Origin: Eledone cirrhosa
Lineage: Eukaryota
Length of the DNA: 64,000 nt
NCBI GenBank assembly: GCA_964016885.1
Contig: OZ024752.1
Coordinates: 30,814,001 to 30,878,000 of the forward strand
Reading direction: 5' to 3'
Part shown: in pieces, positions 2,593 through 59,300 of the stretch
Layout: every line of letters begins with the position of its first letter
How positions within the stretch are numbered: position 1 is the first letter of the stretch
Notes under the pieces: generated by a model
The model's database searches: none
Told to the model about the DNA's origin: nothing
Seen by the model: only the letters and a program-made list of their open reading frames with translations
Position numbers and translations under genes: made by a program

Positions 2593-2634
<42 letters not shown>

Positions 2635-2740
2635 GTGGACGATATTTGTTCGCAAGATTACTGTCTAGGAAAAAAATAACACAGTAGTTTTATTATTTTA
2701 AGATATATTTATCAAACTTGGGTCAGTTTGTCTTCCACGG

Positions 2741-4114
2741 ATGGGTAGAAATAACAAAATTGCCATGGTGATATCCATCGATGAAATATGCGACAAAACC
2801 GGCCGATGTCCCAAGATAGAACATTGCCCAGAAAATCACATCTGCCATATCTGTGCGGAACCCGAAAACTCGTTCCGTAATCGCTGGGTCGAATGTGGAA
2901 CCTGTCGCATCTCTGTCTGCCTTCAATGCGCCACAGGCTTCCGGAGGATCCCAGGCCAAAAAAAGAGACATCATAATGCTATGATGGATGGAATATGGGA
3001 GATGGTCCAGCTAAAATCCTGGTCCTTTCAGTGTCTGGCCTGTGTGCCTGCCTCCACGAATGTTATTAATGTTATTGAAAAACAACAACAACAACAAAAA
3101 CCAATGACTGTGTCTTCCTCTACCATTGTTACTGAACAACGGCAAAAACCTATGACACTGGCTTCTACTGTTATTCCTGTGGGAGAACATCAGAAACAAC
3201 AACAACCCATGTCTTCCACTCCCAGTACATCTCGACACCAACAACTGGTGACTGTGTCTTCCCCTAACATTCCCGTGGAGGAACATCATCATCACCAACA
3301 ACAACAACAGCAACAACCTGCGACTGTGTCCTCCCCTGCCATTCCCGTGGAGGAACATCATCATCACCAACAACAACAACAACAACAGCAACAACCTGCG
3401 ACTGTGTCCTCCCCTGCCATTCCCGTGGAGGAACATCATCACCAACAACGACAGCAGCAGCAGCAACAACAACAACAACAACCGACCAGTACAGATTTTG
3501 CGGAACTGCAACTAATGATTTCTGCTCTGAGAAAGGAAGTTGCAGGAATAGAGGCAAGCATTCGGGTAGGACCCCACAATGAGGGGTCTTATCGGAATGC
3601 CTTGCTAAAGAATCTCCCTGTACCTCTTGCTGGAAAGACTGAAAAGACTGCGGAATCTGCTACCCATGAGGTGATTGCCATTGGGGTACCAGAGGACAAG
3701 GCCGATCTTCAGGCATTTGCTGCCAGCTCGGCCAAAGACCTAGGCTGTGTTCCCCCAAAGGGTGCCCTCCGCCTTGGTCGACCTGGTCCAAAACCCAGAC
3801 TCATCAGGCTGTCTTTCTCGGACCCCGCAGAGGCAACCTCATATCATCTGGCCTCTGCTAAAGCTGGGCGTGAAAATCGGATTACCTTCCGAACACGCCC
3901 AGGCCTACCACCCCATGTACGTCCAAAACTACGTGCTGCAGCTTCCTTGAATCGGAACTCAGCACAAGATGAAAGTTTCAGTCTGCGTGATGATGGGCAG
4001 ATCTGGAGGTTTGTCAAGGCTGGTGAAACGTGGAAGAGAGATACCAGCTGGTCTGAGTGTGATCTACCCACAATAACTGGCAATGTAAAAACTGCTACAA
4101 CTCTGGGAAACTAA
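2741..4114 (+). CDS. LINE ORF1: PHD-like zinc finger, Gln/His repeat linker, coiled coil, RRM-like domain
   Basis: CHIC...WVECGTC...CLQC...FQCLAC Cys pattern; ELQLMISALRKEVAGIE heptads; VIAIGVPE...RLGRPGPKPRLIRLSF motif typical of CR1/L2 ORF1. The start may instead be the ATG at 2765 (gccATGG). Confidence 0.88.
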   Translation: MGRNNKIAMVISIDEICDKTGRCPKIEHCPENHICHICAEPENSFRNRWVECGTCRISVCLQCATGFRRIPGQKKRHHNAMMDGIWEMVQLKSWSFQCLACVPASTNVINVIEKQQQQQKPMTVSSSTIVTEQRQKPMTLASTVIPVGEHQKQQQPMSSTPSTSRHQQLVTVSSPNIPVEEHHHHQQQQQQQPATVSSPAIPVEEHHHHQQQQQQQQQPATVSSPAIPVEEHHHQQRQQQQQQQQQQPTSTDFAELQLMISALRKEVAGIEASIRVGPHNEGSYRNALLKNLPVPLAGKTEKTAESATHEVIAIGVPEDKADLQAFAASSAKDLGCVPPKGALRLGRPGPKPRLIRLSFSDPAEATSYHLASAKAGRENRITFRTRPGLPPHVRPKLRAAASLNRNSAQDESFSLRDDGQIWRFVKAGETWKRDTSWSECDLPTITGNVKTATTLGN

Positions 4115-6936
4115 ACCAGAACAACCTGCCACCCTCTACACACCATCATAAACTGCGAGCAGGGTACAAATTGTTGTCCTTAAATGCTCGCAGTTTATGC
4201 AACAAGATACATCTGTTCGAATCCTACGTCAGAAGCATCGACCCTGACTTCATCACAGTCACGGAAACATGGGCACATTCCTTACTCTGTGATGGGGTTT
4301 TCACCATTACTGGGTACAACCTTTTCCGCAAGGACCGCATTAACCGCCGTGGTGGTGGTGTGATGGTCTACGTTCGTTCAAACTTTTCGGTAATTCCTTG
4401 CGTTGATTTGAACGAATCACAGGAAGAAGTGTTTTTCTGTGACATACGTATGACCATGTCAACACTTCTGCTTGGTGTTGTTTATCGCCCCCCAAACTAC
4501 CATCAGGACACACAGCTTTGCGATATCCTCAGAGTTGCTGCCAAGAAAACAGCCACTTATGTGTTTATTGCAGGTGACTTCAATCATCCTGAGATCGATT
4601 GGGAAACCTTTCGTTGGCCACAGGGTGCAAACGATTTCCTTGAACTAGTGCTGGACTCAAACTGGTCACAAGTAGTCACCTCTCCAACAAGAGGTGACAA
4701 CACTTTGGACCTGATCTTCACCACTACTCCTGAAGTGGTTATCAGTTGTACTACTGAGGAACCTCTAGGCGACTCTGATCATGCTATGATCATTGCCAAT
4801 CTGGCACTTGAGGGCAGCAACAAAAACCAGAGCCATCTCCAATCTGCTTGCTTTGATTGGAAGAGGGCAGATTGGAACTTGTACTGCACTGAGCTACAGC
4901 GCCCAAACTGGCATGAGATGTATAACTCTGGAGATGTGAACTCTATACTCCAGAGCATCCTGGACTCAATATGGATAGCGTGTGCAGCATCAGTGCCACG
5001 GAAGCGGAAAAATAACCACCCCAAAAGTGCAATCTGGGAAACTTCAGCAGTCCGACTTGCCAGGAAAGAACGTCGGAACGCTGAACGGGAATATAAACTG
5101 CATAGATCAGATGCCAACAGAAAAAAGCGGAATAAATCTTCTAACCATCTCAAGCAAGTGACAAAGAAGGCAGTGCTTGAATTTGAACAGTGCATCGCAA
5201 CCAATCCCGACAGTAAGGTGTTCTGGAAATATGTTCATTCAAAGCAGAGACCTCACTCTCCAGCTGGTCCTCTTCGCAATCCCCACACAAGCCAGATCAC
5301 TGACGATCCCAAGGAATGCGCAGAACTCATTGCTGAGTGCTATGCAAGTATTTTTACTGTTGAAAACCAGAATGTACCATCTCCACCATCTCTAACATCA
5401 AATTCCATAACAACTATGGAATTTACACCTGCAATGTTGCGACGTCACCTTAAGAATAAGCGCAACTATGCCTCCCCTGGTCTTGATGGTGTGACATACC
5501 TGCTTCTCAAACGTGGCGGGGATTTCCTTTTGCGCCAGCTTTCTTTTTTCTTTCAATACTGTCTCAGCAATGGTGCTACTCCAGAGCAGTGGAAAACTGC
5601 CAGTGTCATTCCCCTGTTCAAAAAGGGCAACCGCATGTCACCTGTCAACTATCGTTCAGTCAGTCTTACTAGCTGTATGGCCAAACTGATGGAATCCTGT
5701 GTCAGAGAAACACTTTGGAACTTCTGGAGCTCTCACAGCCTCATCCGGCCCTCACAGTTTGGATTTATCCCTAACTCCAGCTGCTGTGATCAGCTTATCG
5801 AGTTCCTTGAGGACATCACCCGGATCACTGACAGCGGCTCATGGGTGGATGTTGTTTACCTTGACTTTGCTAAGGCTTTTAATTCTGTGCCACACAAAAG
5901 ACTTATGGCAAAACTCTCTGCAATGGGTGTGAGGGATGATCTTTTCGACTGGCTGAAATCCTTCATTCTCAGCCGAAAGGAAGTAGTCACAGTTCTAGGA
6001 CAGCATTCTTCACCATATGAGATGTCATCTGGTGTACCACAGGGATCTGTTCTTGGTCCTCTTTTGTTTGTGGCATATATTAATGACATAGATGCCAACT
6101 TACAGAATGCCACGGTACTAAAATATGCAGATGACATCAAGCTGTACCTTGAAATCAAAAGGACTGATCCTGAAATTTACAACTCTTTCCTACAATCAGA
6201 CCTGGACACAATGCAGCAATGGATCACAGACTGGCAACTGAAGCTGGCTGTGGACAAGTGTACCACCATGCATTTTGGAAGGAAAAATCCAGCGTCCACA
6301 TACTCCCTCCACAACACTGACATCAAAAAGTCCTCTTGTGAACGTGACCTGGGCATTACTGTCAGCAACGATTTGCGTTGGACAAAGCATGTCTCTAAGA
6401 TTGTCAAGAAGGCCGAGGGTGTCTTGGCATCACTCAGCAAGACCTTTGTTAGCCGCTCTCCAGCCATCTATTTAAAACTGTATACAGCTATGGTGCGACC
6501 ACACTTGGAATTCGCATCATCAGTCTGGAACCCCTATCTTGCTCGGAACATTGACCTCCTGGAAACTGTTCAGAGACGTGCAACCAAGCGCATACCCTCC
6601 ATCAGACACCTACCATACTCTGAACGCCTTGCTTCCCTGGGCATGGATTCATTGAAGCTCCGACGTCTGGCAGTGGACTTGGTGAATACCCACAAAGTTT
6701 TTAACCATCTCGCCAACTGCAACCCTGAGCGCCTCTTTGATCTCCATGTATCTAACACACGTGGACATGCCTACAAGATAAGAAAACAGCACAGCTCCCA
6801 TGACTTTCGCAGACATTTTTTCACGCTCAGAGTTGCTGAAACATGGAACAAACTGCCTGCGTCAATTGTTAGCTGCCGAGACACTGCATCCTTTAAGACA
6901 CTCATGCTTCCCGAAATACGCCAAAACTACACCTGA
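4111..6936 (+). CDS. LINE ORF2: APE endonuclease plus reverse transcriptase (CR1 clade), no ATG start
   Basis: LNARS, TETW, GDFN, LDL, SDH endonuclease motifs; YLDFAKAF, GVPQGSVLGP, YADD RT motifs; C-terminal TRGH...FFTLRVAETWNKLP typical of CR1. The frame is open from 4063 and the first ATG is at 4363. Confidence 0.95.
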   Translation, partial: LNQNNLPPSTHHHKLRAGYKLLSLNARSLCNKIHLFESYVRSIDPDFITVTETWAHSLLCDGVFTITGYNLFRKDRINRRGGGVMVYVRSNFSVIPCVDLNESQEEVFFCDIRMTMSTLLLGVVYRPPNYHQDTQLCDILRVAAKKTATYVFIAGDFNHPEIDWETFRWPQGANDFLELVLDSNWSQVVTSPTRGDNTLDLIFTTTPEVVISCTTEEPLGDSDHAMIIANLALEGSNKNQSHLQSACFDWKRADWNLYCTELQRPNWHEMYNSGDVNSILQSILDSIWIACAASVPRKRKNNHPKSAIWETSAVRLARKERRNAEREYKLHRSDANRKKRNKSSNHLKQVTKKAVLEFEQCIATNPDSKVFWKYVHSKQRPHSPAGPLRNPHTSQITDDPKECAELIAECYASIFTVENQNVPSPPSLTSNSITTMEFTPAMLRRHLKNKRNYASPGLDGVTYLLLKRGGDFLLRQLSFFFQYCLSNGATPEQWKTASVIPLFKKGNRMSPVNYRSVSLTSCMAKLMESCVRETLWNFWSSHSLIRPSQFGFIPNSSCCDQLIEFLEDITRITDSGSWVDVVYLDFAKAFNSVPHKRLMAKLSAMGVRDDLFDWLKSFILSRKEVVTVLGQHSSPYEMSSGVPQGSVLGPLLFVAYINDIDANLQNATVLKYADDIKLYLEIKRTDPEIYNSFLQSDLDTMQQWITDWQLKLAVDKCTTMHFGRKNPASTYSLHNTDIKKSSCERDLGITVSNDLRWTKHVSKIVKKAEGVLASLSKTFVSRSPAIYLKLYTAMVRPHLEFASSVWNPYLARNIDLLETVQRRATKRIPSIRHLPYSERLASLGMDSLKLRRLAVDLVNTHKVFNHLANCNPERLFDLHVSNTRGHAYKIRKQHSSHDFRRHFFTLRVAETWNKLPASIVSCRDTASFKTLMLPEIRQNYT

Positions 6937-7233
6937 TGTGCCCCTTCCATACACATGCACACATGTGTGCACTGTTCATTTTACTGATGTTTGTGCATTG
7001 CCCTATGTACTGTACATGCACTTTTTTGATGGGTTGTGGTGCACCTGGGCACTGTGCACAATATTTCATTATTGTTATTGTTATTATATCATGACTCATA
7101 CACTGTTTATTTTCCTGACATTTGTACATTATTCTATGTACTATACATGCACCTTTGATAAGTTGTAGTGCACCTGAGCACTGTACACAATAATTTCATT
7201 ATTATTATTATTATATGACTTGTTCTTTCAATC

Positions 7234-7868: not shown

Positions 7869-8276
7869 AAGTTGGAAACCTCAGTTAAGTTACACCATCA
7901 ATCTATAAGTAGTCGATAGGCAAATAGGATGTGATAAGAAAAAACTAAACAAAACACAAAACAACAACAAAAAACATTATTTCTTGCTCCCATTCTTTTT
8001 ACTATAGTTATAGCAACAACACCTCTTGTCAGAAATTTGATTCCTCTTATTTTTATATAAATTCCTTTTGTACCAATTTTTAGCATAAGTGTCTGTTACA
8101 TATTAGTGATAAGGAAAAGATGATTTTTTTTCTTTTTATTATTTAAAAAAAAACTTTGGTGAACGATGATTGAACCAATAACTTTATTATGTTCTTTTTT
8201 TTGTATATTCCATAGGTTTTTGACAAATCCAAGGTAATTTTTGTTGCCTTACCGTTCCTGCCTTCAAAGCACTGCC

Positions 8277-9521
8277 ATGGGAAGTTGTTATAGTCATCAC
8301 AGTTCCTCACTGAAAATTTCTCAGCTTAACAATCGAGACTCGTTTGAACATTTGTTTAAAACAAACAGCGGGGAACTGGTGTGGTCCTGTTCTTACACAA
8401 AATGGTTACAAGGGGTTAAAAATATTAGCGGCTTTACCGACAATACAAACTTTAGCAGTTCAAGAGATCCACATCGTCGGAATGGTATACTTGTTAAACC
8501 TGATAACATGGATGGTCAACATTTCAGTGTTAAATTACCATCAATGTTTGAAGCTGTGGTCTCCAACAAAAATTCTACATGTACAAACTCTGTGGTTATC
8601 AATGGCCTGAATCCATTTACCACTGCTAGTACCACCATGCCAGTCCGCTGCTGGGATTCTTTGCCTGTTATGTTCAAAGAAGCTTGTATTATTAGTTACC
8701 ATGACAACTTAGCTGTACTTCAACTGAATCCATCCCGAGAAGACTTAATGGCTGTATTTTATGTATTGGATTTATCTCATCAGCTGGCATTGGCCGACTT
8801 CAGCATTGCCTACTATCTTCGGCGCTGGTATGAATGTTATATATCTCCCAAAAAGAAAAGGATTCTATTACGACCAGATCACACAACTCGAGTTCTTGTT
8901 ATGCCAGATAATTACTTTCTTCGGAAAATGAGAGTTCACCCATCAAATGAGATTATTATAAGTACCGTGTCACCATCATTGCGTGCTAAGGTGCTCACTT
9001 TTAATGCCCAGGCAGGTGACAATTGTATCGTAGTCAGTTGGTGTCGGTGTATCCAGGTACAACACATCGAATCTGGAGAAATTATAAAATCTGTTGAGGG
9101 ACTTTTATTACGAGCAGGTATTCAACAAATTCGTTCCAGTCAGTCTGGAGACTTCCTTGCTGTACGTTGTGTCCACCCTGTCCACACAAAAGAATACAAA
9201 GTAAATGTTGTTGGAGTTATAGACTATCACAAGCTTGAATTGCTGATGACTATCGATGTTAAAGGTTGTTACTGGCCATTTTCAGATGTAGTCAATCTAC
9301 AAGTGTTTCCTCGTTTTTCACCCAGTGAAGCTTGCATTGCTGTTATGAAAAATTTACCTTACAAACGGCAAGTGTTCACATATAAACTGCCTATTGTTCA
9401 CCTCAACTTACAATATTTATGTCGCCGAAGGATTCTACATTTAGTTTCATTAACGGATGTCAAACATTTACCTCTCCCAAGTCGGCTTATTGACTACCTA
9501 AAATCTTATATTGATGTATGA
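8277..9521 (+). CDS. SOCS-box protein (414 aa), putative Elongin BC-Cullin5 substrate adaptor with N-terminal acylation motif
   Basis: Non-repetitive long ORF. gccATGG Kozak is the first ATG after an in-frame TAA (8235-8237). Splice acceptor (polypyrimidine...TAG) ends at 8215. The C-terminus NLQYLCRRRI (BC box) ... LPLPSRLIDYL (Cul5 box) fits a SOCS box. Confidence 0.85.
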   Translation: MGSCYSHHSSSLKISQLNNRDSFEHLFKTNSGELVWSCSYTKWLQGVKNISGFTDNTNFSSSRDPHRRNGILVKPDNMDGQHFSVKLPSMFEAVVSNKNSTCTNSVVINGLNPFTTASTTMPVRCWDSLPVMFKEACIISYHDNLAVLQLNPSREDLMAVFYVLDLSHQLALADFSIAYYLRRWYECYISPKKKRILLRPDHTTRVLVMPDNYFLRKMRVHPSNEIIISTVSPSLRAKVLTFNAQAGDNCIVVSWCRCIQVQHIESGEIIKSVEGLLLRAGIQQIRSSQSGDFLAVRCVHPVHTKEYKVNVVGVIDYHKLELLMTIDVKGCYWPFSDVVNLQVFPRFSPSEACIAVMKNLPYKRQVFTYKLPIVHLNLQYLCRRRILHLVSLTDVKHLPLPSRLIDYLKSYIDV

Positions 9522-20259: not shown

Positions 20260-23200
20260 ACTGTTGTGATGGCTGTGGTGATGGTGGTAGTGGTGATGGT
20301 GATAGTAGTAAGTGTTGGTGTGGTGGTGGTGGTGGTGAGGGGTGATGGCCATGATAGCAGTGGGTGTTGGTGTGGTGGTGGTGGGGGGATGGCAGTGATA
20401 TCAGTGTGTGTGTGTGGGGGGGGGGGTGATAGCAGTGAGTGTTGGGGTGATGGTGGTGATAGCAGTGAGATTTATGGTGTGGTGGTGGTGGTGGTGGTGG
20501 TGGTGATGGTGTGGCGGTGGTGGTGGTGGTGGTGATGGTGATGGCAGTGGTAGCAGTGAGTGTTGGTGTGGTGGTGGTGGTGGAGTAAATGTTGATGGTG
20601 ATAGTGGTGGTGATAGCGGTGGTAGCAGTGAGTGTTGGTGGTGGTGATGGTGATGGCAGTGGTAGCAGTGAGTGGTGGTGATGGTGTGGCGGTGGTGGTG
20701 GTGGTGATGGTGTGGTGGTGGTGATGGTGTGGGCAGTGGTAGCAGTGAGTGTTGGTGATGGTGTGGCGGTGGTGGTGGTGGTGATGGTGTGGTGGTGGTG
20801 ATGGTGATGGCAGTGGTAGCAGTGAGTGTTGGTGATGGTGTGGCGGTGGTGGTGGTGGTGATGGTGTGGTGGTGGTGATGGTGATGGCAGTGGTAGCAGT
20901 GAGTGTTGGTGGTGGTGATGGTGTGGTGGTGGTGATGGTGATGGCAGTGGTAGCAGTGAGTGTTGGTGGTGGTGATGGTGTGGTGGTGGTGATGGTGATG
21001 GCAGTGAGTGGTGGTGATGGTGTGGCGGTGATGGTGTGGCGGCGGTGGTGGTGGTGATGGTGTGGCGGTGGTGGTGATGGTGGTGATGGTGATGGCAGTG
21101 GTAGCAGTGAGTGGTGGTGGTGGTGATGGTGATGGCAGTGGTCGCAGTGAGTGGTGGTGATGGTGTGGCGGTGGTGTGGCGGTGGTGGTGGTGGTGATAG
21201 CAGTGGTAGCAGTGAGTGATGGTGGTGGCAGTGGTAGCAGTGAGTGTTGGTGGTGATGGTGGTGGTGATGGCAGTGGTGGTGATGGTGGTGATGATGGTG
21301 ATGGTGATGGTGATGGCAGTGGTAGCAGTGAGTGGTGGTGGTGGTGGTGGTGATGATGGTGGTGGTGGTGGTGATAGCAGTGGTAGCAGTGAGTGGTGGT
21401 GATGGTGGTGGTGATGGTGTGGCAGTGGTAGCAGTGAGTGGTGGTGGTGGTGGTGGTGGTGATGGCAGTGGTAGCAGTGAGTGGTGGTGGTGGTGATGAT
21501 GGTGGTGGTGGTGGTGGTGGTGATGGCAGTGGTAGCAGTGAATGGTGGTGGTGGTGATGATGGTGGTGGTGGTGGTGGTGGTGGTGGTGGTGATGGCAGT
21601 GGTAGCAGTGAGTGGTGGTGGTGGTGGTGATGATGGTGGTGGTGGTGGTGATGGCAGTGGTAGCAGTGAGTGGTGGTGGTGGTGGTGGTGGTGGTGGTGG
21701 TGGTGGTGGCAGTGGTAGCAGTGAGTGGTGGTGGTGGTGGTGATGATGGTGGTGGTGGTGGTGGTGGTGGTGGTGGTGATGGCAGTGGTAGCAGTGAGTG
21801 GTGGTGATGATGGTGGTGGTGGTGATGGCAGTGGTAGCAGTGAGTGGTGGTGGTGGTGGTGGTGGTGGTGGTGGTGATGGCAGTGGTAGCAGTGAGTGGT
21901 GGTGGTGGTGGTGATGGTGGTGGTGGTGGTGGTGGTGGTGGTGGTGATGATGGTGGTGGTGGTGATGGCAGTGGTAGCAGTGAGTGGTGGTGGTGGTGGT
22001 GATGATGGTGGTGGTGGTGGTGGTGGTGGTGGTGGTGGTGGCAGTGGTAGCAGTGAGTGGTGGTGGTGGTGGTGGTGGTGGTGGTGGTGATGGCAGTGGT
22101 AGCAGTGAGTGGTGGTGGTGGTGGTGATGATGGTGGTGGTGGTGGTGGTGATGGCAGTGGTAGCAGTGAGTGGTGGTGGTGGTGGTGATGGTGGTGGTGG
22201 TGGTGGTGATGATGGTGGTGGTGGTGGCAGTGGTAGCAGTGAGTGGTGGTGGTGGTGATGGCAGTGGTAGCAGTGAGTGGTGGTGGTGGTGGTGGTGGTG
22301 GTGGTGGTGGTGGTGGTGATGGCAGTGGTAGCAGTGAGTGGTGGTGGTGGTGGTGATGATGGTGGTGGTGGTGGTGATGGCAGTGGTAGCAGTGAGTGGT
22401 GGTGGTGGTGGTGATGATGGTGGTGGTGGTGGTGGTGGTGATGGCAGTGGTAGCAGTGAGTGGTGGTGGTGGTGGTGGTGGTGGTGGTGGTGATGGCAGT
22501 GGTAGCAGTGAGTGGTGGTGGTGGTGGTGGTGGTGGTGGTGGTGGTGATGGTGTGGCAGTGGTAGCAGTGAGTGGTGGTGGTGGTGGTGATGATGGTGGT
22601 GGTGGTGGTGATGGCAGTGGTAGCAGTGAGTGGTGGTGGTGGTGGTGATGATGGTGGTGGTGGTGGTGGTGGTGGTGGTGGTGATGGCAGTGGTAGCAGT
22701 GAGTGGTGGTGGTGGTGGTGGTGATGGTGTGGCAGTGGTAGCAGTGAGTGGTGGTGGTGGTGGTGGTGATGATGGTGGTGGTGGTGATGATGGCAGTGGT
22801 AGCAGTGAGTGGTGGTGGTGGTGGTGGTGATGATGGTGGTGGTGGTGGTGATGGCAGTGGTAGCAGTGAGTGGTGGTGGTGGTGGTGGTGGTGGTGGTGG
22901 TGGTGATGGCAGTGGTGGTGGTGGTGGTGGTGGTGGTGGTGATGGTGTGGCAGTGGTAGCAGTGAGTGGTGGTGGTGGTGGTGATGATGGTGGTGGTGGT
23001 GGTGATGGCAGTGGTAGCAGTGAGTGGTGGTGGTGGTGGTGATGATGGTGGTGGTGGTGGTGGTGGTGGTGGTGATGGCAGTGGTAGCAGTGAGTGGTGG
23101 TGGTGGTGGTGGTGGTGGTGGTGGTGGTGATGGTGTGGCAGTGGTAGCAGTGAGTGGTGGTGGTGGTGGTGATGATGGTGGTGGTGGTGGTGGTGGTGGT

Positions 23201-24814
23201 GATGGCAGTGGTAGCAGTGAGTGGTGGTGGTGGTGGTGATGATGGTGGTGGTGGTGGTGGTGGTGGTGGTGATGGCAGTGGTAGCAGTGAGTGGTGGTGG
23301 TGGTGGTGGTGGTGGTGGTGGTGGTGGTGGTGGTGATGGTGTGGCAGTGGTAGCAGTGAGTGGTGGTGGTGGTGGTGATGATGGTGGTGGTGGTGGTGAT
23401 GATGGCAGTGGTAGCAGTGAGTGGTGGTGGTGGTGGTGGTGATGATGGTGGTGGTGGTGGTGATGGCAGTGGTAGCAGTGAGTGGTGGTGGTGGTGGTGG
23501 TGGTGGTGGTGGTGGTGGTGATGGCAGTGGTAGCAGTGAGTGGTGGTGGTGGTGGTGGTGGTGGTGGTGGTGGTGATGGTGTGGCAGTGGTAGCAGTGAG
23601 TGGTGGTGGTGGTGGTGATGATGGTGGTGGTGGTGGTGGTGGTGGTGATGGCAGTGGTAGCAGTGAGTGGTGGTGGTGGTGGTGATGATGGTGGTGGTGG
23701 TGGTGGTGGTGGTGGTGATGGCAGTGGTAGCAGTGAGTGGTGGTGGTGGTGGTGGTGGTGGTGGTGGTGGTGGTGATGGTGTGGCAGTGGTAGCAGTGAG
23801 TGGTGGTGGTGGTGGTGGTGGTGGTGGTGATGGCAGTGGTAGCAGTGAGTGGTGGTGGTGGTGGTGATGATGGTGGTGGTGGTGGTGGTGGTGGTGGTGA
23901 TGGCAGTGGTAACAGTGAGTGGTGGTGGTGGTGGTGGTGGTGATGGCAGTGGTAGCAGTGAGTGGTGGTGGTGGTGGTGGTGGTGGTGGTGGTGGTGGTG
24001 GTGGTGATGGCAGTGGTAGCAGTGAGTGGTGGTGATGGTGGTGGTGGTGGTGGTGGTGATGGCAGTGGTAGCAGTGAGTGGTGGTGGTGGTGGTGATGAT
24101 GGTGGTGGTGGTGGTGGTGGTGGTGATGGTGGTGGTGGTGGTGATGGCAGTGGTAGCAGTGAGTGGTGGTGGTGGTGGTGATGATGGTGGTGGTGGTGGT
24201 GATGGCAGTGGTAGCAGTGAGTGGTGGTGGTGGTGGTGGTGGTGGTGATGATGGTGGTGGTGGTGGTGATGGCAGTGGTAGCAGTGAGTGGTGGTGGTGG
24301 TGGTGATGGTGGTGGTGGTGGTGGTGATGGCAGTGGTAGCAGTGAGTGGTGGTGGTGGTGGTGATGATGGTGGTGGTGGTGGTGATGGCAGTGGTAGCAG
24401 TGAGTGGTGGTGGTGGTGGTGATGATGGTGGTGGTGGTGGTGATGGCAGTGGTAGCAGTGAGTGGTGGTGGTGGTGGTGGTGGTGGTGATGATGGTGGTG
24501 GTGGTGGTGATGGCAGTGGTAGCAGTGAGTGGTGGTGATGATGGTGGTGGTGGTGGTGATGGCAGTGGTAGCAGTGAGTGTTGGTGGGTGGTGATGGTGG
24601 TGGGGATGTTAGTAGTGGTGGTGATGGAGGAGGTAGTGGTGAGTGAATGTTGAGTGTTGGCATTCCTTGTGGTAATGGTTGTTGTTGTTGTTGTTGGGAT
24701 GGTGTTGATAATGGTAGGAATGTCAGTGGAGGGGTGGTGGTGGTGGTGGTGGTGGTGGTGGTGGTGGTGGTGGTGGTAAAACATCAGGGATGGTAATGTT
24801 GGTGGTATTGGTGA

Positions 24815-25554: not shown

Positions 25555-28500
25555 GGTAGTAGTGGTGGTAGTACTGGTAGTGTTAGTAGTATTGGAGGTA
25601 GTACTGGTAGTGTTATTAGTAGTGGTGGTAGTACTGGTAGTGTTAGTAGTATTGGTGGTAGTACTGGTAGTGTTAGTAGTATTGGAGGTAGTACTGGTAG
25701 TGTTAGAAGTATTGGAGGTAGTACTGGTAGTGTTAGTAGTATTGGAGGTAGTACTGGTAGTGTTAGTAGTATTGGAGGTAGTACTGGTAGTGTTAGTAGT
25801 ATTGGAGGTAGTACTGGTAGTGTTATTAGTAGTGGTGGTAGTACTGGTAGTGTTAGTAGTATTGGAGGTAGTACTGGTAGTGTTAGTAGTATTGGAGGTA
25901 GTACTGGTAGTGTTAGTAGTATTGGAGGTAGTACTGGTAGTGTTAGTAGTATTGGAGGTAGTACTGGTAGTGTTAGTAGTATTGGAGGTAGTACTGGTAG
26001 TGTTATTAGTATTGGTAGTGTTAGTAGTATTGGAGGTAGTACTGGTAGTGTTAGTAGTATTGGAGGTAGTACTGGTAGTGTTATTAGTAGTGGTGGTAGT
26101 ACTGGTAGTGTTAGTAGTATTGGAGGTAGTATTGGAGGTAGTACTGGTAGTGTTATTAGTATTGGTAGTGTTAGTAGTATTGGAGGTAGTACTGGTAGTG
26201 TTAGTAGTATTGGAGGTAGTACTGGTAGTGTTAGTAGTATTGGAGGTAGTACTGGTAGTGTTAGTAGTATTGGAGGTAGTACTGGTAGTGTTAGTAGTAT
26301 TGGAGGTAGTACTGGTAGTGTTAGTAGTAGTGATGGTAGTGTTAGTAGTATTGGAGGTAGTACTGGTAGTGTTAGTAGTAGTGGTGGTAGTACTGGTAGT
26401 GTTATTAGTATTGGAGGTAGTACTGGTAGTGTTAGTAGTATTGGAGGTAGTACTGGTAGTGTTAGAAGTATTGGAGGTAGTACTGGTAGTGTTAGAAGTA
26501 TTGGAGGTAGTACTGGTAGTGTTAGTAGTAGTGGAGGTAGTACTGGTAGTGTTAGAAGTATTGGAGGTAGTACTGGTAGTGTTATTAGTAGTGGTGGTAG
26601 TACTGGTAGTGTTAGTAGTATTGGTGGTAGTACTGGTAGTGTTAGTAGTATTGGAGGTAGTACTGGTAGTGTTAGTAGTATTGGAGGTAGTACTGGTAGT
26701 GTTAGTAGTATTGGAGGTAGTACTGGTAGTGTTAGAAGTATTGGAGGTAGTACTGGTAGTGTTAGTAGTAGTGGAGGTAGTACTGGTAGTGTTAGTAGTA
26801 TTGGAGGTAGTACTGGTAGTGTTAGTAGTATTGGAGGTAGTACTGGTAGTGTTAGAAGTGTTGGAGGTAGTACTGGTAGTGTTAGTAGTATTGGAGGTAG
26901 TACTGGTAGTGTTATTAGTATTGGAGGTAGTACTGGTAGTGTTAGTAGTATTGGAGGTAGTACTGGTAGTGTTAGAAGTGTTGGAGGTAGTACTGGTAGT
27001 GTTAGTAGTAGTGGAGGTAGTACTGGTAGTGTTAGAAGTGTTGGAGGTAGTACTGGTAGTGTTAGTAGTATTGGAGGTAGTACTGGTAGTGTTAGAAGTG
27101 TTGGAGGTAGTACTGGTAGTGTTAGTAGTAGTGGTGGTAGTACTGGTAGTGTTAGTAGTATTGGAGGTAGTACTGGTAGTGTTAGTAGTATTGGAGATAG
27201 TACTGGTAGTGTTAGTAGTATTGGAGGTAGTACTGGTAGTGTTAGTAGTATTGGAGGTAGTACTGGTAGTGTTAGTAGTATTGGAGGTAGTACTGGTAGT
27301 GTTAGTAGTATTGGAGGTAGTACTGGTAGTGTTAGTAGTATTGGAGGTAGTACTGGTAGTGTTAGTAGTATTGGAGGTAGTACTGGTAGTGTTAGAAGTG
27401 TTGGAGGTAGTACTGGTAGTGTTAGTAGTAGTGGTGGTAGTACTGGTAGTGTTAGTAGTATTGGAGGTAGTACTGGTAGTGTTAGTAGTATTGGAGGTAG
27501 TACTGGTAGTGTTAGTAGTATTGGAGGTAGTACTGGTAGTGTTAGTAGTATTGGAGGTAGTACTGGTAGTGTTAGTAGTATTGGAGGTAGTACTGGTAGT
27601 GTTAGTAGTATTGGAGGTAGTACTGGTAGTGTTAGTAGTATTGGAGGTAGTACTGGTAGTGTTAGTAGTATTGGAGGTAGTACTGGTAGTGTTATTAGTA
27701 TTGGAGGTAGTGCTGGTAGTGTTAGTAGTAGTGGAGGTAGTATTGGTAGTGTTAGTAGTATTGGAGGTAGTACTGGTAGTGTTAGTAGTATTGGAGGTAG
27801 TACTGGTAGTGTTAGTAGTAGTGGTGGTAGTACTGGTAGTGTTAGTAGTATTGGAGGTAGTACTGGTAGTGTTAGTAGTATTGGAGGTAGTACTGGTAGT
27901 GTTATTAGTATTGGAGGTAGTACTGGTAGTGTTAGTAGTATTGGAGGTAGTACTGGTAGTGTTAGTAGTATTGGAGGTAGTACTGGTAGTGTTAGAAGTG
28001 TTGGAGGTAGTACTGGTAGTGTTAGTAGTAGTGGAGGTAGTACTGGTAGTGTTAGTAGTATTGGAGGTAGTACTGGTAGTGTTAGTAGTATTGGAGGTAG
28101 TACTGGTAGTGTTAGAAGTGTTGGAGGTAGTACTGGTAGTGTTAGAAGTGTTGGAGGTAGTACTGGTAGTGTTAGAAGTGTTGGAGGTAGTACTGGTAGT
28201 GTTAGTAGTATTGGAGGTAGTACTGGTAGTGTTAGTAGTATTGGAGGTAGTACTGGTAGTGTTAGTAGTATTGGATGTAGTACTGGTAGTGTTAGTAGTA
28301 GTGGTGGTAGTACTGGTAGTGTTAGTAGTAGTGGTGGTAGTACTGGTAGTGTTAGTAGTATTGGAGGTAGTACTGGTAGTGTTAGTAGTATTGGAGGTAG
28401 TACTGGTAGTGTTAGTAGTATTGGAGGTAGTACTGGTAGTGTTAGTAGTATTGGAGGTAGTACTGGTAGTGTTAGTAGTATTGGAGGTAGTACTGGTAGT

Positions 28501-29660
28501 GTTAGTAGTATTGGAGGTAGTACTGGTAGTGTTAGTAGTATTGGAGGTAGTACTGGTAGTGTTAGTAGTATTGGAGGTAGTACTGGTAGTGTTAGTAGTA
28601 TTGGAGGTAGTACTGGTAGTGTTAGTAGTATTGGAGGTAGTACTGGTAGTGTTAGTAGTATTGGTCGTGTTAGAAGTATTGGAGGTAGTACTGGTAGTGT
28701 TAGAAGTATTGGAGGTAGTACTGGTAGTGTTAGTAGTATTGGAGGTAGTACTGGTAGTGTTAGTAGTATTGGAGGTAGTACTGGTAGTGTTAGTAGTATT
28801 GGATGTAGTACTGGTAGTGTTAGTAGTAGTGGTGGTAGTACTGGTAGTGTTAGTAGTAGTGGTGGTAGTACTGGTAGTGTTAGTAGTATTGGAGGTAGTA
28901 CTGGTAGTGTTAGTAGTATTGGAGGTAGTACTGGTAGTGTTAGTAGTATTGGAGGTAGTACTGGTAGTGTTAGTAGTATTGGAGGTAGTACTGGTAGTGT
29001 TAGTAGTATTGGAGGTAGTACTGGTAGTGTTAGTAGTATTGGAGGTAGTACTGGTAGTGTTAGTAGTATTGGAGGTAGTACTGGTAGTGTTAGTAGTATT
29101 GGAGGTAGTACTGGTAGTGTTAGTAGTATTGGAGGTAGTACTGGTAGTGTTAGTAGTATTGGAGGTAGTACTGGTAGTGTTAGTAGTATTGGAGGTAGTA
29201 CTGGTAGTGTTAGTAGTATTGGAGGTAGTACTGGTAGTGTTATTAGTATTGGTAGTGTTAGTAGTATTGGAGGTAGTACTGGTAGTGTTATTAGTATTGG
29301 AGGTAGTACTGGTAGTGTTAGTAGTATTGGAGGTAGTACTGGTAGTGTTAGTAGTATTGGAGGTAGTACTGGTAGTGTTAGTAGTATTGGAGGTAGTACT
29401 GGTAGTGTTAGTAGTAGTGGAGGTAGTACTGGTAGTGTTAGTAGTATTGGAGGTAGTACTGGTAGTGTTAGTAGTATTGGAGGTAGTACTGGTAGTGTTA
29501 GTAGTATTGGAGGTAGTACTGGTAGTGTTAGTAGTATTGGAGGTAGTACTGGTAGTGTTAGTAGTATTGGATGTAGTACTGGTAGTGTTAGTAGTATTGG
29601 AGGTAGTACTGGTAGTGTTAGTAGTAGTGGAGGTAGTACTGGTAGTGTTAGTAGTATTGG
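25555..29660. repeat. 30-bp minisatellite GTAGTACTGGTAGTGTTAGTAGTATTGGAG (~135 copies)
   Basis: Near-perfect 30-bp period over 4.1 kb. Confidence 0.98.
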
Positions 29661-40640: not shown

Positions 40641-41167
40641 AACGGTGGAATAGCAATATAATCAAAACAAACGGAAGGTAACCACACGTAATAGCACAAC
40701 AATCTTTTAAGAACCAACAATCCAACACGCTAACTCGAACTGTGAACTTGAACTCCAGCTTTGACTATCAACACACGAACTGTGGAACTAGTACCGACTT
40801 GCCCACTTATTCAGGCCGCTACTATTTATATATAGTAGTCCAGCCCATTCTTTTTTCACGCTCAGAGTTGCTGAAGCATGGAACAAACTACCTGCATCAG
40901 TTATTAGCTGTCGAGACACTGCATCCTTTAAAACCAGCATGCTTCATGAGATACGGCAACACTACACCTAATATTCCCCCTCCATACACACATGTATATC
41001 ATGACTCATACACTATTCACTTCCCTGACATTTGTATATTATTCTATGTACTATACATGCACCTTTGGTGAGTTGTAGTGCACCTGAGCACTGTATACAA
41101 TAATTTCATTATTATGATCATTATTCATTATTATTCTTGCCAGGGGGCATTGTACTCTCATACAACA
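40608..41167 (-). mobile_element. Solo LTR (family of 10148-10419) interrupted by a CR1 3' fragment
   Basis: TGTT...AACA termini; TSD GTCTG/GTCTA with one mismatch. Confidence 0.78.
40853..41132 (+). mobile_element. 5'-truncated CR1 copy related to the 2.7-7.2 kb element
   Basis: Matches 6817-7214, including the hairpin and ATT tail; ATTCTT is repeated at both junctions. Confidence 0.9.
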
Positions 41168-45856: not shown

Positions 45857-48800
45857 ATCATCATCATCATCATCATCAACGTTTAACGTCCGTGTTCCAC
45901 GCTTGCATGGGTTTGGACGGGGGTATTCCCACTTGAGGCAAGAGTGATTGTCTTGCTCGCATAGGACTGTCTGGCAGGTTTTCTACAGTTGGATGCCCTT
46001 CCTAACACCAACCACATTTACAGTGTGGGGCTGGGAGGTTTTTACCGTGTTGCCTACACGGCCACATTACAGCGTGGACTGTGTGTTTTTTTGTCGTGAC
46101 ACCTACACGATCTCATTTGTTTCGGCCTGGATGGCGCGGCACCAACATAACTTTACATAGAACGGGGTGGTGTGGATGGAGTGGGGGTGGGGGTGGTGGG
46201 ACGGGGTTTATTTTGTTAGCGATGCCTACTGGCTGTAGTAGGTTTTACTATGTATTTAGGTAAGGCGGGTCTTCTCTGTTACTGAGTACCGCCAAAGGTC
46301 TCGGTCCAGTGACATTGTCTTGGAGAGGTGTAAGTGTGTGAGGTCGGAGTTTATCAGCTCGTCCCAGGTTTTTCTAGGTCTGCCTATTCCGTGGCTACCG
46401 TCTATCTTTATTGCCCTGCACTTTGTTATACAGCTATCGACTTTCATGCGCATCACATGTCCATACCAACGTAGCCTTCTCTCGAGTAAACAACATCTGA
46501 TCCCTCTTATTTCTAATTTTGTCCTTAGTTCGTTTATGCTTTGCCGTTCACGTATATTACTATTACACATCCATCGGAGCATGCAAGCTTCGTTCCTCTC
46601 TAGTCTGCGTATATCCTCTGCACACAATGCCCAGGTCTCACTGCCATGCAACATTGCTGTTCGTATGCAGGCATCATACAACCTGCCTTTCATTTTTAGG
46701 GAGAACCCTTTAGCAGCTAATAGTGGTATAAGCTCTCTGAACTTTTTCCATCCAGTTCTGACTCTAGCTACTGTACTTTCAGAGCACCCTCCCCCACTGC
46801 TGATTTTGTCACCCAGGTAACGGAAGCTGTCCACTATTTCTATAGAGCCCTCTGAGCAGTTGTAAGAGCTAGTATTTTGTGGGCACTTGCTGCTACTTAT
46901 TGCACCAGAGCACCGGCCACATGTAAAATCTATGTTCTTAGTTAGCTTACCTGTGATCCCACTACATCTTTTATGCACCCATACTTTGCATTGGGGACAT
47001 AAAATGGAGTTTCTACATACGCCTTTCCTACACACTGAGCATGGCCATTTCCCGGAAGGGACCGCCGCCTTATTTTCTTTCCTACAAACTAGAACTTTAG
47101 TCTTAGCCAGGTTAATTTTAAGGCCTTTTGATTCTAGGCCGTGCTTCCATGTTTGGAATTTCTTCTCTAGCTCGGCCATTGATTCAGCTATGAGTGTCAG
47201 GTCGTCTGCGTATAGGAGTTCCCATGGGCAGCCGGTCTTGAACTCCTCTGTTATAGCCTGAAGGGCAATAATAAATAGTAGGGGGCTGAGAACAGAGCCC
47301 TGATGGACGCCAACTTTTACGCTAAACTCTTCACTATATTCGTTGTTAATTCTAACCTTGCTGACTGTTTCTTTATACATGGCTTGTATAGCTCTCACAA
47401 GCCATTCGTCGACACCTAGTTTTCTAAGGGCCCACCAGATAATGGAACGGGGGGACTCTGTCGAAGGCTTTCTCCAAGTCGACAAAAGCTAAGTATAGGG
47501 GTTTACCTTTAGCTAGGTACTTCTCCTGTAGTTGTCGTACGATGAAAAGAGCGTCTGTGGTACTTTTGCCTGACACAAACTCGAACTGCATTTCATCTAG
47601 GTCAATTCTCTCTCTGATTAGTTGCGCTATTACTTTTTCCGTGACCTTCATGACCTGGTCGATTAATTTAATGCCTCTATAGTTACTCCTATCTAGGGCA
47701 TCTCCTTTACCCTTATAACAGTTAACGATGATGCTGCTATGCCAGTCCTTCGGAACAACCCCATTCTGTACGACTTGGTTAACTATGCGGGTGACCATGG
47801 TGTGTCCCACCGTGCCAGATGCCTTCAGCATCTCAGCAACTATTTCCTATCTAGGGCATCTCCTTTACCCTTATAACAGTTAACGATGATGCTGCTATGC
47901 CAGTCCTTCGGAACAACCCCATTCTGTACGACTTGGTTAACTATCCGGGTGACCATAGTGTGTCCCACCGTGCCAGATGCCTTCAGCATCTCAGCAACTA
48001 TTTCCGAAGGCCCAGCTGCCTTACCCGTCTTCATATCCTTGATTGCCTTACTTATTATACTACCCTCGACTAACACTGCTGGTCCCTCTATTGGGTCGAT
48101 GTGGGGGAGACTGTCTTTCTCCCATTTATTCTCCTCATTTAGTAGCCTTTCATAGTGACACTTCCAAGCTACCTTCTTATCAGCATCGGTGATGGCAAGT
48201 ACGCCGTCATCATTAAGTACACACTTCTCCCCGACAATATCACGGTTTTCCTTGACACATTGCCTAGCAATCCTGAACACCTCACGTTTTTGGTCCTCGC
48301 GTTGTAGAACATGCTTGAACTTTCTTTCCTCTGCTTCCCTTCTTGCGAAGTACACTTGTCTCCTAGCTTCCCTCCTGGCCACTTGATAGTCTTCTCTACT
48401 TCCCCCATCCCGCCATACTTTCCAAGCCTGCTTTTTGGCCTTAATTGACCCCTCCACCTTACTGTTCCACCACCATGTTACTCTCCTCCTGCCTACAGAC
48501 CTGCTCCAGCCACAGACTTCGTCTGTCGCCATCAGCAGGTTTGCTTTCAGAAATTCCCACTGTCCCTCTATATTGTCCGACTCTAAATGCTCTTCCTTAC
48601 TGTCGAAAGCATCAAGTAATATGCTTTGAAATTTATTTCTGGCTGTGGGGTCCTTTAGCTTCCATATTTTTCTCCTGAGGATAGTCCTCTTCTGCTGTCG
48701 AGTACGTCTCGTCCTGACTATGAGGTCGCTAATTATCAGTCTATGTTGGGAGGTGCATTCTTCATGGGGGAGAGATTTAGTGTTTACAACAGACACTCCG

Positions 48801-49600
48801 TCACGTCTTCTGGTAAGGATATAATCTACCTGGCTTGTGTGTTCCCCGGATCTATAGGTGATCAGGTGATTGTCACGTTTTTTGAAGTTAGTGTTACAGA
48901 TAGTTAGGTTATTTGCGTCACAGAATTCCAGGATTCTGGAGCCTTCCTCATTTCTAGTACCAAACCCATAGCCTCCATGGATTTCGTCGTAGCCATCACA
49001 ATGTTGTCCAACGTGACCATTTAGGTCACCTGCAATAATTATATAGTCACTGTCGGTTATTTGGGAGGTAGTGAGCATCAGTGTCTCATAGAATCTGTCT
49101 TTTATAGTGCCGGGCAGTCCGGATTGGGGTGCGTACGCAGATATTACTGTCACCGTAGTTCTATTGAGGACAAGTCTTATTTTAATTATTCTGTCGTTCA
49201 CTCTATTTACGTCTATTATCTTATCTGCCCACTTTTCTGCTACCATGATTCCTACTCCACCCAGCCCATCGTCGTTTCCCACCCAGAAAAGCTTATAACA
49301 TCGTTTTTTACCCTCAATGAATCTAGCAGACCCACCCCTCCGCCTGGTCTCTTGAATACAACAAACATCGACCTCCTTACGTTCAAGCATTTCTACAACC
49401 TCGTTAGCGCGACCCTTTAAGGTGCCTACATTTATGGTACCAACTCTGAAGTTTTGGATTGCGTTTGGAGGGTGGGGGCGGGGGGAGATGGGGTTATGTT
49501 AGCCGTCCGCGGTCGAAACAAAGAGGAGTGCTCGCATTCTCGTCCACGAGGTGAATTTGTCTTTATCTTTGGCATTGTCGCTGAACGTCCAGATTTTTCT
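45857..49600 (-). mobile_element. Near-full-length RTE-clade LINE (family 1): APE, RT with PHD-like insert, long 3' UTR, (GAT)n tail
   Basis: FRVGTINVGTL, CIQET, GDLNGHVG, SQH endonuclease motifs; FVDLEKAFDRVP, QGSVLSP, YADD RT motifs. Disrupted by a 158-bp tandem duplication and two apparent homopolymer frameshifts. Confidence 0.93.
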
Positions 49601-56343: not shown

Positions 56344-59300
56344 CTTTACGTCCGCTTTTCCCTGCTTGCAAGGGTGGGATGGGTCTTATTCAGCACAGCA
56401 TCTCTCCACTTATCACGGTCCTTCGTCATCTCCACCATGAGCTTTAGCGATCTGAGATCTGTTCTCACCACCTCCGCCCATGTTTTTCGTGGTCTACCTC
56501 TACCACGTCTTCCTTCAACTGGCATTTCCTGGCACTTCTTCACCCATTGGTCATCCTCCATGCGCATCACATGTCCATACCACCGTAGTCTCCTCTCTCG
56601 CACACTACATTCTATCCCTCACAGACACAGTTTCTCTCTCAACACATCCGTGCTGGGTCGTTCACGCACATTGACATTGCACATCCATCCAGCCGTCACA
56701 TATCCTCTGCAGTTGCTGCCCAAGTCTCACTACCATGCAGCATCGCGCTCCTCACACAGGCATCATATAACCGGCCTTTCGTACGCAGGGAGAAACCCTT
56801 CTTCGTCAGCAGAGGAAGCAGCTCCCTAAACTTCTTCCAACCCGTCCTTATTCTAGATACTATGGCCTCGGAACAACCCCCCTCGCATGCTAATCTGATC
56901 TCCTAGGTATCCACCACTTCTATAGCACCCGCCTGCATTTGAAAAATGTGTCTATCAATGTGACTTCTACTGTCTAATTTTCCCGTACATCTACTGCATA
57001 CGTATTTCTCCCTACCTGTTAGTTTGCCTGCTAACCCACTACATCTCTTGTGTACCCAGGATCTGCATTGTGTGCATTTTATAGAATTTATGCCAGTTCC
57101 TTTTCTGCATATCGAACATGGCCATTTCCCTGACGGAATCAGAGTTTTGACCTCTTTTCTACTCATCAACACTTTTGTCTTAGCTAGGTTCACTCTCAGT
57201 CCTCTTGCTTCCAACTGCTATTTCCTTAGCCAGAATTTATTCTCTAGCTCCTCTACTGATTCTGCTATAAGAACCAGATCGTCAGCATTGAGAAGTTCCC
57301 ATGGACAGCCAGTCTTAAACTCCTCTGTTATGGCTTGGAGGACTATAATGAACAAGAGCGGGCTGAGGACCGAACCTTGATTTACTACTACTTGTATCTG
57401 AAATTTCTCACTAAATTCCATTCCTACCCTGACTTTACAGACAGCACCTCTGTACAAAGTTTGCACTGTCCTCACAAGCCATTCCTCAACACCTAGTTTC
57501 CTTAGAGATCACCAGATGACAGATCGGGGTACCCTATCAAAGGCCTTCTCTAGGTCAACAAAAGCTAAGTATAGTGGCTTATTTTTCTCTAAAAACCTCT
57601 CTTGTAATTGTCTCACCAAGAAGAGGGCATCTGTTGTACTCTTCCCAGGCACAAAACCAAACTGCATCACATCTAGTTTGACCCTTTCTCTAATTAGTTG
57701 TGCTAATATCCTTTCTGCCACTTTCATAACCTGATCCATCAGTTTTATACCCCTATAATTGCTCCTCTCCAGAGCATCCCCTTTACCTTTGTAGCAATTT
57801 ATGAGAATACTGCTGCACCAGTCTTTGGGTATGACACCACCATATATAGCCTGATGCGTGCAACCAGTTTAGTGCCTACATCCCCTGATGCCTTCAGCAT
57901 CTCAGCAACTATCCCCGACGGTCCAGCAACCTTACCATTGTTCATTTCCTTAATAGCCTCTTAGACCCTATATTCGTCAATCTCAATAGCTGGTCCCTCT
58001 GTCGGATCTACTGAGAGCAATTTCTCTCTCTCCCATTCGTTCTCCACATTCATCAGTCTCTTATAATGACATGTCCAGGCCTCCTTTTTCTGATCATTCG
58101 TGACACTAAGTACACTGGCATCATTCCGGACACATTTATCTCCAACAACATCATAATTTGCATTGACACACTGCCTTGCAATGTGGAACACCACACACCT
58201 CTGATCTTCCCGTCGCAGAACATTGGCAAACCTCCTACTCTCAGCCTACCTGCGTGCTAAGTACACCTGATGTCTAGCTTCTCTCTTAGCGGCTGTATAT
58301 CCTTCTCTACTCCCACCCTTTTCCCAAGCTTTCCATGCTAGTCTTTTGTCTCTAATGGCCCTATCTAATGTGCTGTTCCACCACCAGGTCACTCTGTCTG
58401 GTTGGAGCTCTGCTCCAGCCACAAGTTTCATCAGTAGCCTGCAGTAAGTTGTCACGTAAGAAATTCCAGTTATTATCGATGTCATACGACTCTAAATCAT
58501 CTTCTTTTTCGTCATGCACATCTTGAAGAGCTTTCCTAAATTTGTATTTTAGTGAAAGATCTTTTAGCTTCCAGACCTTTCTTCTCCACACCTTCCTGTA
58601 TGTTTCATTCCATCCCTTGCTTACTGAGATATCACCAACGACTAACCTATGCTGTGGGGTACATTCTTCCCCAGGATATGCCTTGGTATTTGACACCATC
58701 TGCCTGTCCCGCTGCCTAACTAGTAAGAAGTCAATCTGGCTTATGTGCTCACCAGATTTGTAGGTTATTAGGTGATTGGCAGGTTTCTGGAAGTTAGTGT
58801 TGCAAATAGTCAGTGTACTTGCATCACAAAATTCAAGAAGTCTCACTCCTTCTTCATTTCTTGAGCCGTAACCGTGCCCACCATGTACTCCAGTGTAACC
58901 ATCCTGGAGCTGTCCAACATGACCATTGAAGTCCCCTGCTAGCATAACGATGTCTCCATCCTCTGTCATTGCGGCTGTTTGTAAAAGTTGCTCGTAAAAG
59001 CAGTCTTTCTCTTCTTTGCCTAGGCCTGCTTGGGGAGCATAGGCAGAGATGATTGTCAGTAGTCTCCTGCCTACAACTAATCTAAGCTTAATTATTCAAT
59101 TATTAACTCGAACTACCTCTATTGTCTTATTGATCCATCTCTCAGCCAGGAAAATGCCTACTTCCCCTAACCCATCATCCTTACCTACCCAGAAAAGCTT
59201 ATAGCTAAGATGTTTGCCTGCGACTAGTCTCGCAGAGGCACCTCTTGCACACATCCACATGCCTTCTCTCCAGCATCTCCGCTATTTCACCAGATCTACC

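Follow-up and report, generated by a model that had tools for sequence, protein, structure and literature searches.

SRV-1 and PEG10 presumably both use exactly the heptamer G_GGA_AAC as their slippery site. In the retroviral gag-pro and gag-pol genes and in PEG10, a sequence of the type X_XXY_YYZ lies at the end of an open reading frame (ORF) for a structural, RNA-binding protein (PMC3542737), and the enzyme ORF follows in the -1 frame without a start codon of its own. G_GGA_AAC itself is counted among the most shifty heptamers (PMC5009743). We describe the same arrangement in a full-length CR1-type long interspersed nuclear element (LINE) located at about 2631-7090 on the + strand of a 64,000-nt stretch of Eledone cirrhosa DNA, hereafter called the window. 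The element differs from the retroviral cases in being a non-LTR element (one that lacks long terminal repeats) with an APE endonuclease and no protease that would cleave the fusion, and in that no stimulator was found at 5-9 nt from the heptamer.

The way in which LINEs translate ORF2 has been described as both important and unsettled (PMC3894237). L1 and SART1 resemble the window element in being two-ORF LINEs with a low ORF2 output, and the ORF1 product of the window is predicted to fold like L1 ORF1p. However, L1 has a spacer between its ORFs and AUG-independent initiation, whereas SART1 has a UAAUG stop-start (PMC3894237), and both produce a free ORF2 protein (ORF2p), unlike the fusion predicted here. 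The preliminary description of the locus had set these two elements apart as users of other routes than frameshifting. Frameshifting is not among the ORF2 routes named in the available part of PMC3894237. A blanket statement that LINEs do not frameshift nevertheless needs softening, as TRE5-A and TRE3-A of Dictyostelium, which are APE-type non-LTR elements, need a -1 frameshift for ORF2 according to a review (PMC5911963). They belong to another lineage and another host, and the passage of the review names neither a shift site nor an experiment. In addition, HeT-A has been listed with a frameshift, TART with a mode that is not known and L1 with unusual initiation (PMC5009743).

For consensus sequences of non-LTR elements in Paramecium, +1 frameshifting or re-initiation (groups 1 and 2) and readthrough (group 3) have been suggested (PMC5405496). 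These groups resemble the +1 and UGA-C classes of related loci that are presented below, but they form a separate ciliate clade without a -1 class, and no motif is given in the part of the paper at hand. In CR1, L2 and Crack elements a 2A-like StopGo sequence provides recoding just before the APE domain, which was proposed to lower ORF2p (PMC3708506, PMC3894237). Unlike the junction in the window, StopGo is peptide-driven and in frame, separates the proteins and is mostly found in elements that lack ORF1. A 2A-like NPGP upstream of the endonuclease was also seen in long open frames among our own sequences (L008 and L116; P0092, P0097, P0104 and P0122). We found no report of frameshifting in CR1 in the full-text literature searched, the chicken and turtle CR1 papers of the 1990s and most subscription papers excepted. 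To that extent a shift site of the retroviral gag-pol type is new for CR1-type LINEs, such recoding having been suggested before for the LINEs of Dictyostelium and Paramecium.

The ORF1-ORF2 junction

ORF1 (2741..4114, + strand) encodes 457 amino acids (aa) from its first ATG at 2741, within a stop-to-stop frame of 2702-4114. Its terminal codons are CTG GGA AAC TAA, which puts the heptamer G_GGA_AAC (4105..4111, + strand), the predicted -1 shift site, in X_XXY_YYZ phase right before the TAA stop (4112..4114, + strand). The frame of ORF2 lies at -1 and is open from 4063 to 6936, that is from before the heptamer through the APE endonuclease and reverse transcriptase domains, and thereby overlaps ORF1 by 52 nt (4063..4114, + strand). 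The first in-frame ATG of ORF2 is found at 4363 (frame residue 101), on the 3' side of the endonuclease motifs NARS and TETW, and an annotation of ORF2 from this ATG therefore yields a truncated endonuclease. The phase of the heptamer, the open -1 frame and the position of the ATG had all been put forward in the preliminary description, and each was confirmed from codons and translation. Entered via a -1 shift, ORF2 (4111..6936, + strand) would contribute 941 aa and the predicted fusion would measure 457 + 941 = 1,398 aa, in line with the roughly 1,400 aa proposed earlier; that such a fusion is made we regard as highly probable.

The combination is rare by chance. In the two strands of the window only 9 of 7,242 stop triplets (0.12%) have one of five efficient heptamers in front of them. 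Among the read contigs matched to the element, those from run X1 with 1 difference and with 78 differences crossed the junction free of gaps, and thus the frame offset is not private to the window copy. None of the 8 listed indels falls at the junction, and the 40 variant rows listed out of 324 include none within 4097-4131.

Conservation of the slippery site

When the final 203 residues of ORF1 were used in a profile-free search, 60 homologues were obtained (representatives of 50%-identity clusters); a homologue in Octopus vulgaris is 59% identical. The 52 sequences with a complete C-terminal W motif were analysed and the other 8 dropped. After the W motif the homologues have low-complexity tails of 5-42 residues that are otherwise unalignable. 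Nevertheless, every tail contains, at the protein level, the dipeptide GN (42 of the 52), KN (5) or EN (5), situated 0-18 residues from the C-terminus of ORF1. After shuffling within the tails (2,000 rounds) GN was found 7.1 times on average and 18 times at most, versus the 42 observed. Moreover, GN is preceded by S, Q, A, P, T, V or E, residues with codons able to end in G in 42/42 cases, whereas N, D, H, Y, F, C and I, although they make up 20.8% of the tail residues, never occupy this position (0/42; P 5.5e-5). The residues preceding KN all have codons that can end in A. GN and the codon rule together would be the footprint expected of G_GGA_AAC, as read at the protein level. Among the closer relatives, the ORF1 protein P0123 (64% identical) terminates in GN. 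Locus L005, which shares 127 of 230 endonuclease residues (55%) and belongs to the same branch as P0004, has G_GGA_AAC followed by TAG, at a heptamer-to-NARS distance of -75 nt versus -78 in the window element.

To cover distant relatives at the DNA level, a degenerate motif of the endonuclease start was used, which retrieved 103 metagenome loci from about 6/64 parts of the collection; scans of viral contigs returned nothing. With the window included the loci fall into 93 clusters at 85% identity, and on basis of geometry only we distinguished a -1 overlap (24 clusters), a +1 overlap (14) and an in-frame arrangement (12), which leaves 43 clusters without a class. In the 92 clusters other than the window, and blind to ORF1, the pattern XXXAAAC in the open stretch before NARS is distributed over the three phases as 15:2:3 (5,146 codons); for comparison, the ORF2 bodies contain 17 in-phase cases in 34,837 codons. 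When a stop within 450 nt is also demanded the distribution becomes 8:1:2, and all 8 in-phase cases are open to NARS. The heptamer-plus-stop layout of the window element is thus shared, in the -1 phase, by 8 other clusters.

The geometry classes gave a similar picture. With G_GAA_AAC counted, an efficient heptamer in phase is present in 20 of the 24 -1-overlap clusters (window included), where 0.33 would be expected from ORF1 bodies; heptamers in the two wrong phases number 0 and 0 in the same clusters, and none is found in the +1-overlap clusters (0/14). Ten of the 20 DNA sites are strictly canonical and ten are G_GAA_AAC. Synonymous codon choice would predict 2.05 slippery sites among the 20. 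In one clade G_GAA_AAC and G_GGA_AAC interchange at one position, the preceding codon (Val, Pro, Thr, Ala or Gly) always ends in G, and the site precedes the ORF1 stop by 19-47 codons, with the ORF2 frame open from the site onwards. GGA is tolerated as XXX in other viruses (PMC3542737, PMC5009743), and the string G_GAA_AAC does not occur in the portion of PMC5009743 examined.

The ORF2 frame typically opens shortly before the heptamer (median 5 codons) and is still open well after it (median 39 codons). Of the in-phase sites that lie no more than 330 nt from NARS, 31 of 33 are open all the way to it, versus 9 of 15 for those out of phase. The stop rate of the third frame had been considered as a null for this openness and was dropped, as it is inflated by codon bias. 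An ATG ahead of the endonuclease, which on the preliminary description would have spoken against frameshifting, is absent before NARS from 19 of the 24 -1-overlap clusters. Judged from these comparisons, the heptamer site is conserved beyond protein constraint, and the earlier call for a check of the family was answered in favour of the site both in the homologue tails and in the -1-overlap clusters.

RNA structure downstream of the heptamer

The usual spacing between heptamer and stimulatory structure is 5-9 nt (PMC3542737), and 11-15 nt occurs in protein-assisted shifts (PMC5009743). It had been proposed that 4120-4124 pairs with 4171-4175, and 4125-4129 or 4131-4135 with 4159-4165. The complementary pieces are indeed present, but the segment 4112-4180 folds at -9.9 kcal/mol (z -0.68), with 53 of 200 shuffles as good, and this shuffle-level stability gives no support to the 5-bp stems as stimulator. 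A far stronger hairpin is predicted at 4147..4199 (+ strand), with a 15-bp perfect stem and an inner stem, at -29.3 kcal/mol (z -5.6; 0/200 shuffles as good), the second-lowest z among 147 folding windows along the element. It competes with the stems proposed before. As it begins 35 nt past the heptamer, versus the usual 5-9, it is too distant for a classic stimulator, and within 20 nt of the heptamer only 5-bp stems begin. A pseudoknot between 4120-4124 and the hairpin loop is geometrically possible and weak. Conservation of the hairpin is doubtful: a near-fixed change at 4157 in run X8 breaks one of its pairs unless a partner change stands among the unlisted rows, and a loose end in X1 differs across much of the 5' arm. 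The change at 4151 leaves a G-U pair. When 4115-4146 was compared with the remainder of the element for long-range pairing, G-rich patches came out best; these matches had no null and were left unused.

Other loci differ in what follows the heptamer. Hairpins about 5-12 nt downstream occur in several U_UUA_AAC and U_UUU_UUA loci and in L005. In the clade that uses G_GAA_AAC and G_GGA_AAC, thirteen of the 14 listed sites (L016, L017, L029, L033, L047, L059, L061, L073, L075, L081, L084, L090 and L101, not L031) share the octamer GTGGTAGG some 12 nt past the heptamer; it is a candidate for either a linear stimulator or a dual-frame constraint. A run of 4-6 G follows U_UUA_AAC + TAG at a near-fixed distance of about 10 nt after the heptamer in L025, L027, L032, L096, L118, L137 and L138, and could possibly act as a stimulator.

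Other junction classes and phylogeny

In all 12 in-frame clusters the TGA stop is followed by C, versus 6 of the 38 clusters with an overlap (Fisher P 1.5e-7). A single TGA-C (often CT) separates ORF1 and ORF2 in the same frame in L006, L010, L019, L021, L023, L026, L028, L051, L071, L080, L095 and L100, and also in L109, L122, L126 and L139 of the held-out set described below, at 9-63 codons before NARS. UGA-CUA is the leaky context of type II readthrough (PMC3542737), and by their sequence these loci form a candidate stop-codon readthrough class.

The +1-overlap clusters have another signature. Near the end of ORF1 an in-frame TTT-C is present in 11 of the 14 (1.6 expected) and TTT-CG in 5 (0.25 expected). 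The loci with a +1-frame ORF2 and TTT-C, often as TCT or CCC TTT CGT, are L002, L003, L012, L022, L039, L041, L049, L057, L065, L067, L072, L092 and L132. The motif resembles UCC_UUU_CGU of influenza PA-X (PMC5009743) and UUU_CGN of the amalgaviruses (PMC5052127), which makes these loci candidates for a PA-X-type +1 shift class. An in-frame upstream ATG is found in 8 of the 14 clusters, and therefore initiation remains an alternative for them. TTT-C is also mildly enriched in the -1 overlaps (7/24 versus 1.8 expected), mostly beside the heptamer.

With the motifs fixed, we examined a held-out set, namely eukaryotic-type DNA found within prokaryote assemblies, which comprised 36 loci in 19 clusters. 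Four of the 5 in-frame clusters have TGA-C and one has TAG-G. Three of the 4 -1-overlap clusters are slippery, two of them belonging to families already present in the first set, and one of the three +1-overlap clusters has TTT-CGT, the other two being damaged copies of U_UUA_AAC families. One multi-copy family has 10 copies long enough to include the junction, and U_UUA_AAC + TAG is kept in 9 of these. The animal-type LINEs of the held-out set (L104-L139) come from 36 prokaryote-assembly contigs, of which 13 belong to a single metagenome-assembled genome of the Metamycoplasmataceae, and this points to contamination with host DNA.

Trees were made with a quick IQ-TREE run (44 rows) and with FastTree (59 rows); both are unrooted and come with long-branch warnings, and the FastTree tree holds no curated clade references or outgroup. 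The lineage of the window comprises 7 rows (support 100, FastTree) and is sister (86-89, not starred) to the users of U_UUA_AAC, U_UUU_UUA and G_GAA_AAC together with two proteins from stork and turtle, P0050 and P0102, which we take to be CR1; the group that holds these two has a support of 96. The +1 and UGA-C elements are intermixed in another branch (98), with L012 and L026, and L051 and L132, as well-supported sister pairs of unlike junction. On the FastTree tree the junction label changes at least 7 times.

Other features of the element and the window

ORF1 consists of a Cys-rich N-terminal domain, PHD-like as judged by eye, a Gln/His-rich repeat linker, a coiled coil and an RRM, both assigned from the fold match given below, and a C-terminal domain; a Pfam scan of ORF1 gave no match. 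The linker is encoded by about three copies of a 72-78-nt repeat at 3235-3470 and differs among homologues. The AlphaFold model of ORF1 (mean pLDDT 69) has the chains of the human L1 ORF1p trimer as its best match (E 4.5e-5; TM-score to target 0.34), and the model also matches RRM domains. In ORF2, Pfam returned endonuclease and reverse transcriptase families only (Exo_endo_phos, 4.7e-15; RVT_1, 4.7e-35), and no RNase H.

The CR1 clade is characterized by an ORF1 of the PHD/RRM or esterase type and by a 3' end of short tandem repeats instead of poly(A). The 3' untranslated region (UTR) of the window element (6937..7090, + strand) ends in ATT/GTT-type short repeats (about 7064-7090), as in that clade, and its last 115 nt have a second copy at 7101-7214. 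A target-site duplication of 8 nt or more was not found at the element. Elsewhere in the window its family is represented by a 3' fragment only (40851-41125).

A second LINE, presumably RTE-like, lies on the - strand at 46256-49498 and encodes an endonuclease, a reverse transcriptase and, within the post-reverse-transcriptase region, a PHD-type finger. A 158-nt tandem duplication at 47687-48005 disrupts this LINE, and a further fragment is found at about 57233-59095. The 427-codon open frame at 8238-9521 (+ strand), with a C-terminal SOCS box, is probably an exon of a host gene. Two long simple arrays at 20475-24777 and 25556-29660, one TGG-based and one made up of 136 copies of a 30-nt unit, explain the open frames of 1,400-1,500 codons in several phases.

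Discussion

The phase of the heptamer, its conservation in one phase only and the lack of a start codon ahead of the endonuclease make it very likely, in our analysis of the sequences, that programmed -1 frameshifting at G_GGA_AAC yields the 1,398-aa ORF1-ORF2 fusion in this CR1-type LINE. The step from a conserved signal to actual shifting is made on the strength of retroviral and viral precedent. Tandem tRNA slippage would proceed from GGA-AAC to GGG-AAA, so that a minority of the ribosomes slips back one base and continues into ORF2, as for retroviral Gag-Pol. Most ribosomes would stop at 4112 and release ORF1p, and the shift rate would set the low ratio of ORF2p to ORF1p. The coiled coil of the fused ORF1 part may then place the enzyme within ORF1p trimers on its own RNA.

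Several observations weigh against this interpretation. The folds of the element contain no stimulator at the usual 5-9 nt spacing, and over the whole set the 90 nt that follow 29 candidate sites have a mean z of -0.63, versus -0.40 in 19 controls. The result for all 52 tails was obtained at the protein level, which leaves the codons unread, and the dipeptide EN is in itself common. In P0003, the closest relative of ORF2 (61%), a Met is predicted 59 residues ahead of NARS, and the protein sequence in that stretch has no G-K-L reading. Among the distant relatives geometry assigned no class to 43 of 93 clusters, four of the 24 -1-overlap clusters have no heptamer, and G_GAA_AAC was added to the heptamer set after inspection of the data (10/24 are canonical without it). 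The held-out set brought a single new positive family (L114, with G_GGA_AAC + TGA) and one new negative (L135). Finally, Poisson and product probabilities overstate the significance, because the elements are related and not independent.

Four other explanations have to be considered. Ribosomes that terminate at the ORF1 stop could reinitiate at a non-AUG codon and produce a separate ORF2p, as proposed for mammalian L1. In-frame CTG (4126, 4153) and TTG (4171, 4174) codons are indeed available between the stop and the endonuclease, and the strong hairpin begins 21 nt after CTG 4126 and could aid initiation. The view preferred for L1 is initiation independent of AUG (PMC5009743, PMC1965478), and in SART1 the initiation of ORF2 is influenced by a structure that lies downstream of the stop-start (PMC3894237). 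Nonetheless, reinitiation leaves unexplained why the heptamer is conserved in one phase, and in the clade with G_GAA_AAC and G_GGA_AAC the site is found well upstream of the stop, where the ORF2 frame is already open; we consider this explanation unlikely. It is more doubtful still that GN, KN and EN represent a conserved C-terminal protein motif of ORF1p with a slippery look as by-product. The own-family evidence, being restricted to proteins, would allow it, but the motif floats with respect to the C-terminus, the residue in front follows a codon rule, all 20 DNA sites have slippery codons where synonymous choice predicts about two, and other lineages have LN or FL in its place.

The chances of the last two explanations are smaller again. 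A decayed copy, in which an upstream ATG was lost or one ORF was divided in two by a one-base change, would fit with the single full-length copy in the window and with the fact that only part of the variant rows is listed. On the other hand, both ORFs are intact, related contigs pass the junction without gaps, L005 and P0123 have the same layout and most -1-overlap clusters likewise lack an ATG before NARS, and we give decay very little credit. Joining of the frames at the RNA level, through splicing, editing or transcriptional slippage, is about as improbable. The three AG dinucleotides in 4063-4185 have no pyrimidine tract, a long homopolymer is absent from the junction and removal of the ORF1 stop by editing would merely extend the 0 frame by some 22 codons. 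Moreover, none of these processes would select for X_XXY_YYZ. We thus retain programmed -1 frameshifting as the explanation of the junction.

A wider generalization, which we favour with some reserve, is that two-ORF CR1-type LINEs as a rule make ORF1-ORF2 fusions, with the lineages swapping between -1, +1 UUU-C and UGA-C routes. Within this generalization, -1 slippage on four or five heptamers is probably ancestral in the branch that includes the bird and turtle elements. Taken together, the loci form an extensive natural collection of candidate -1, +1 and readthrough signals of animal genomes, among them the little-known G_GAA_AAC. For the element itself, the conserved site gives a testable answer to the way in which CR1-type LINEs express ORF2, with a target of only seven bases. 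The predicted fusion could explain both the low dose of the enzyme and its delivery to its own RNA and, if true, CR1-type LINEs would have a genuine Gag-Pol-like polyprotein.

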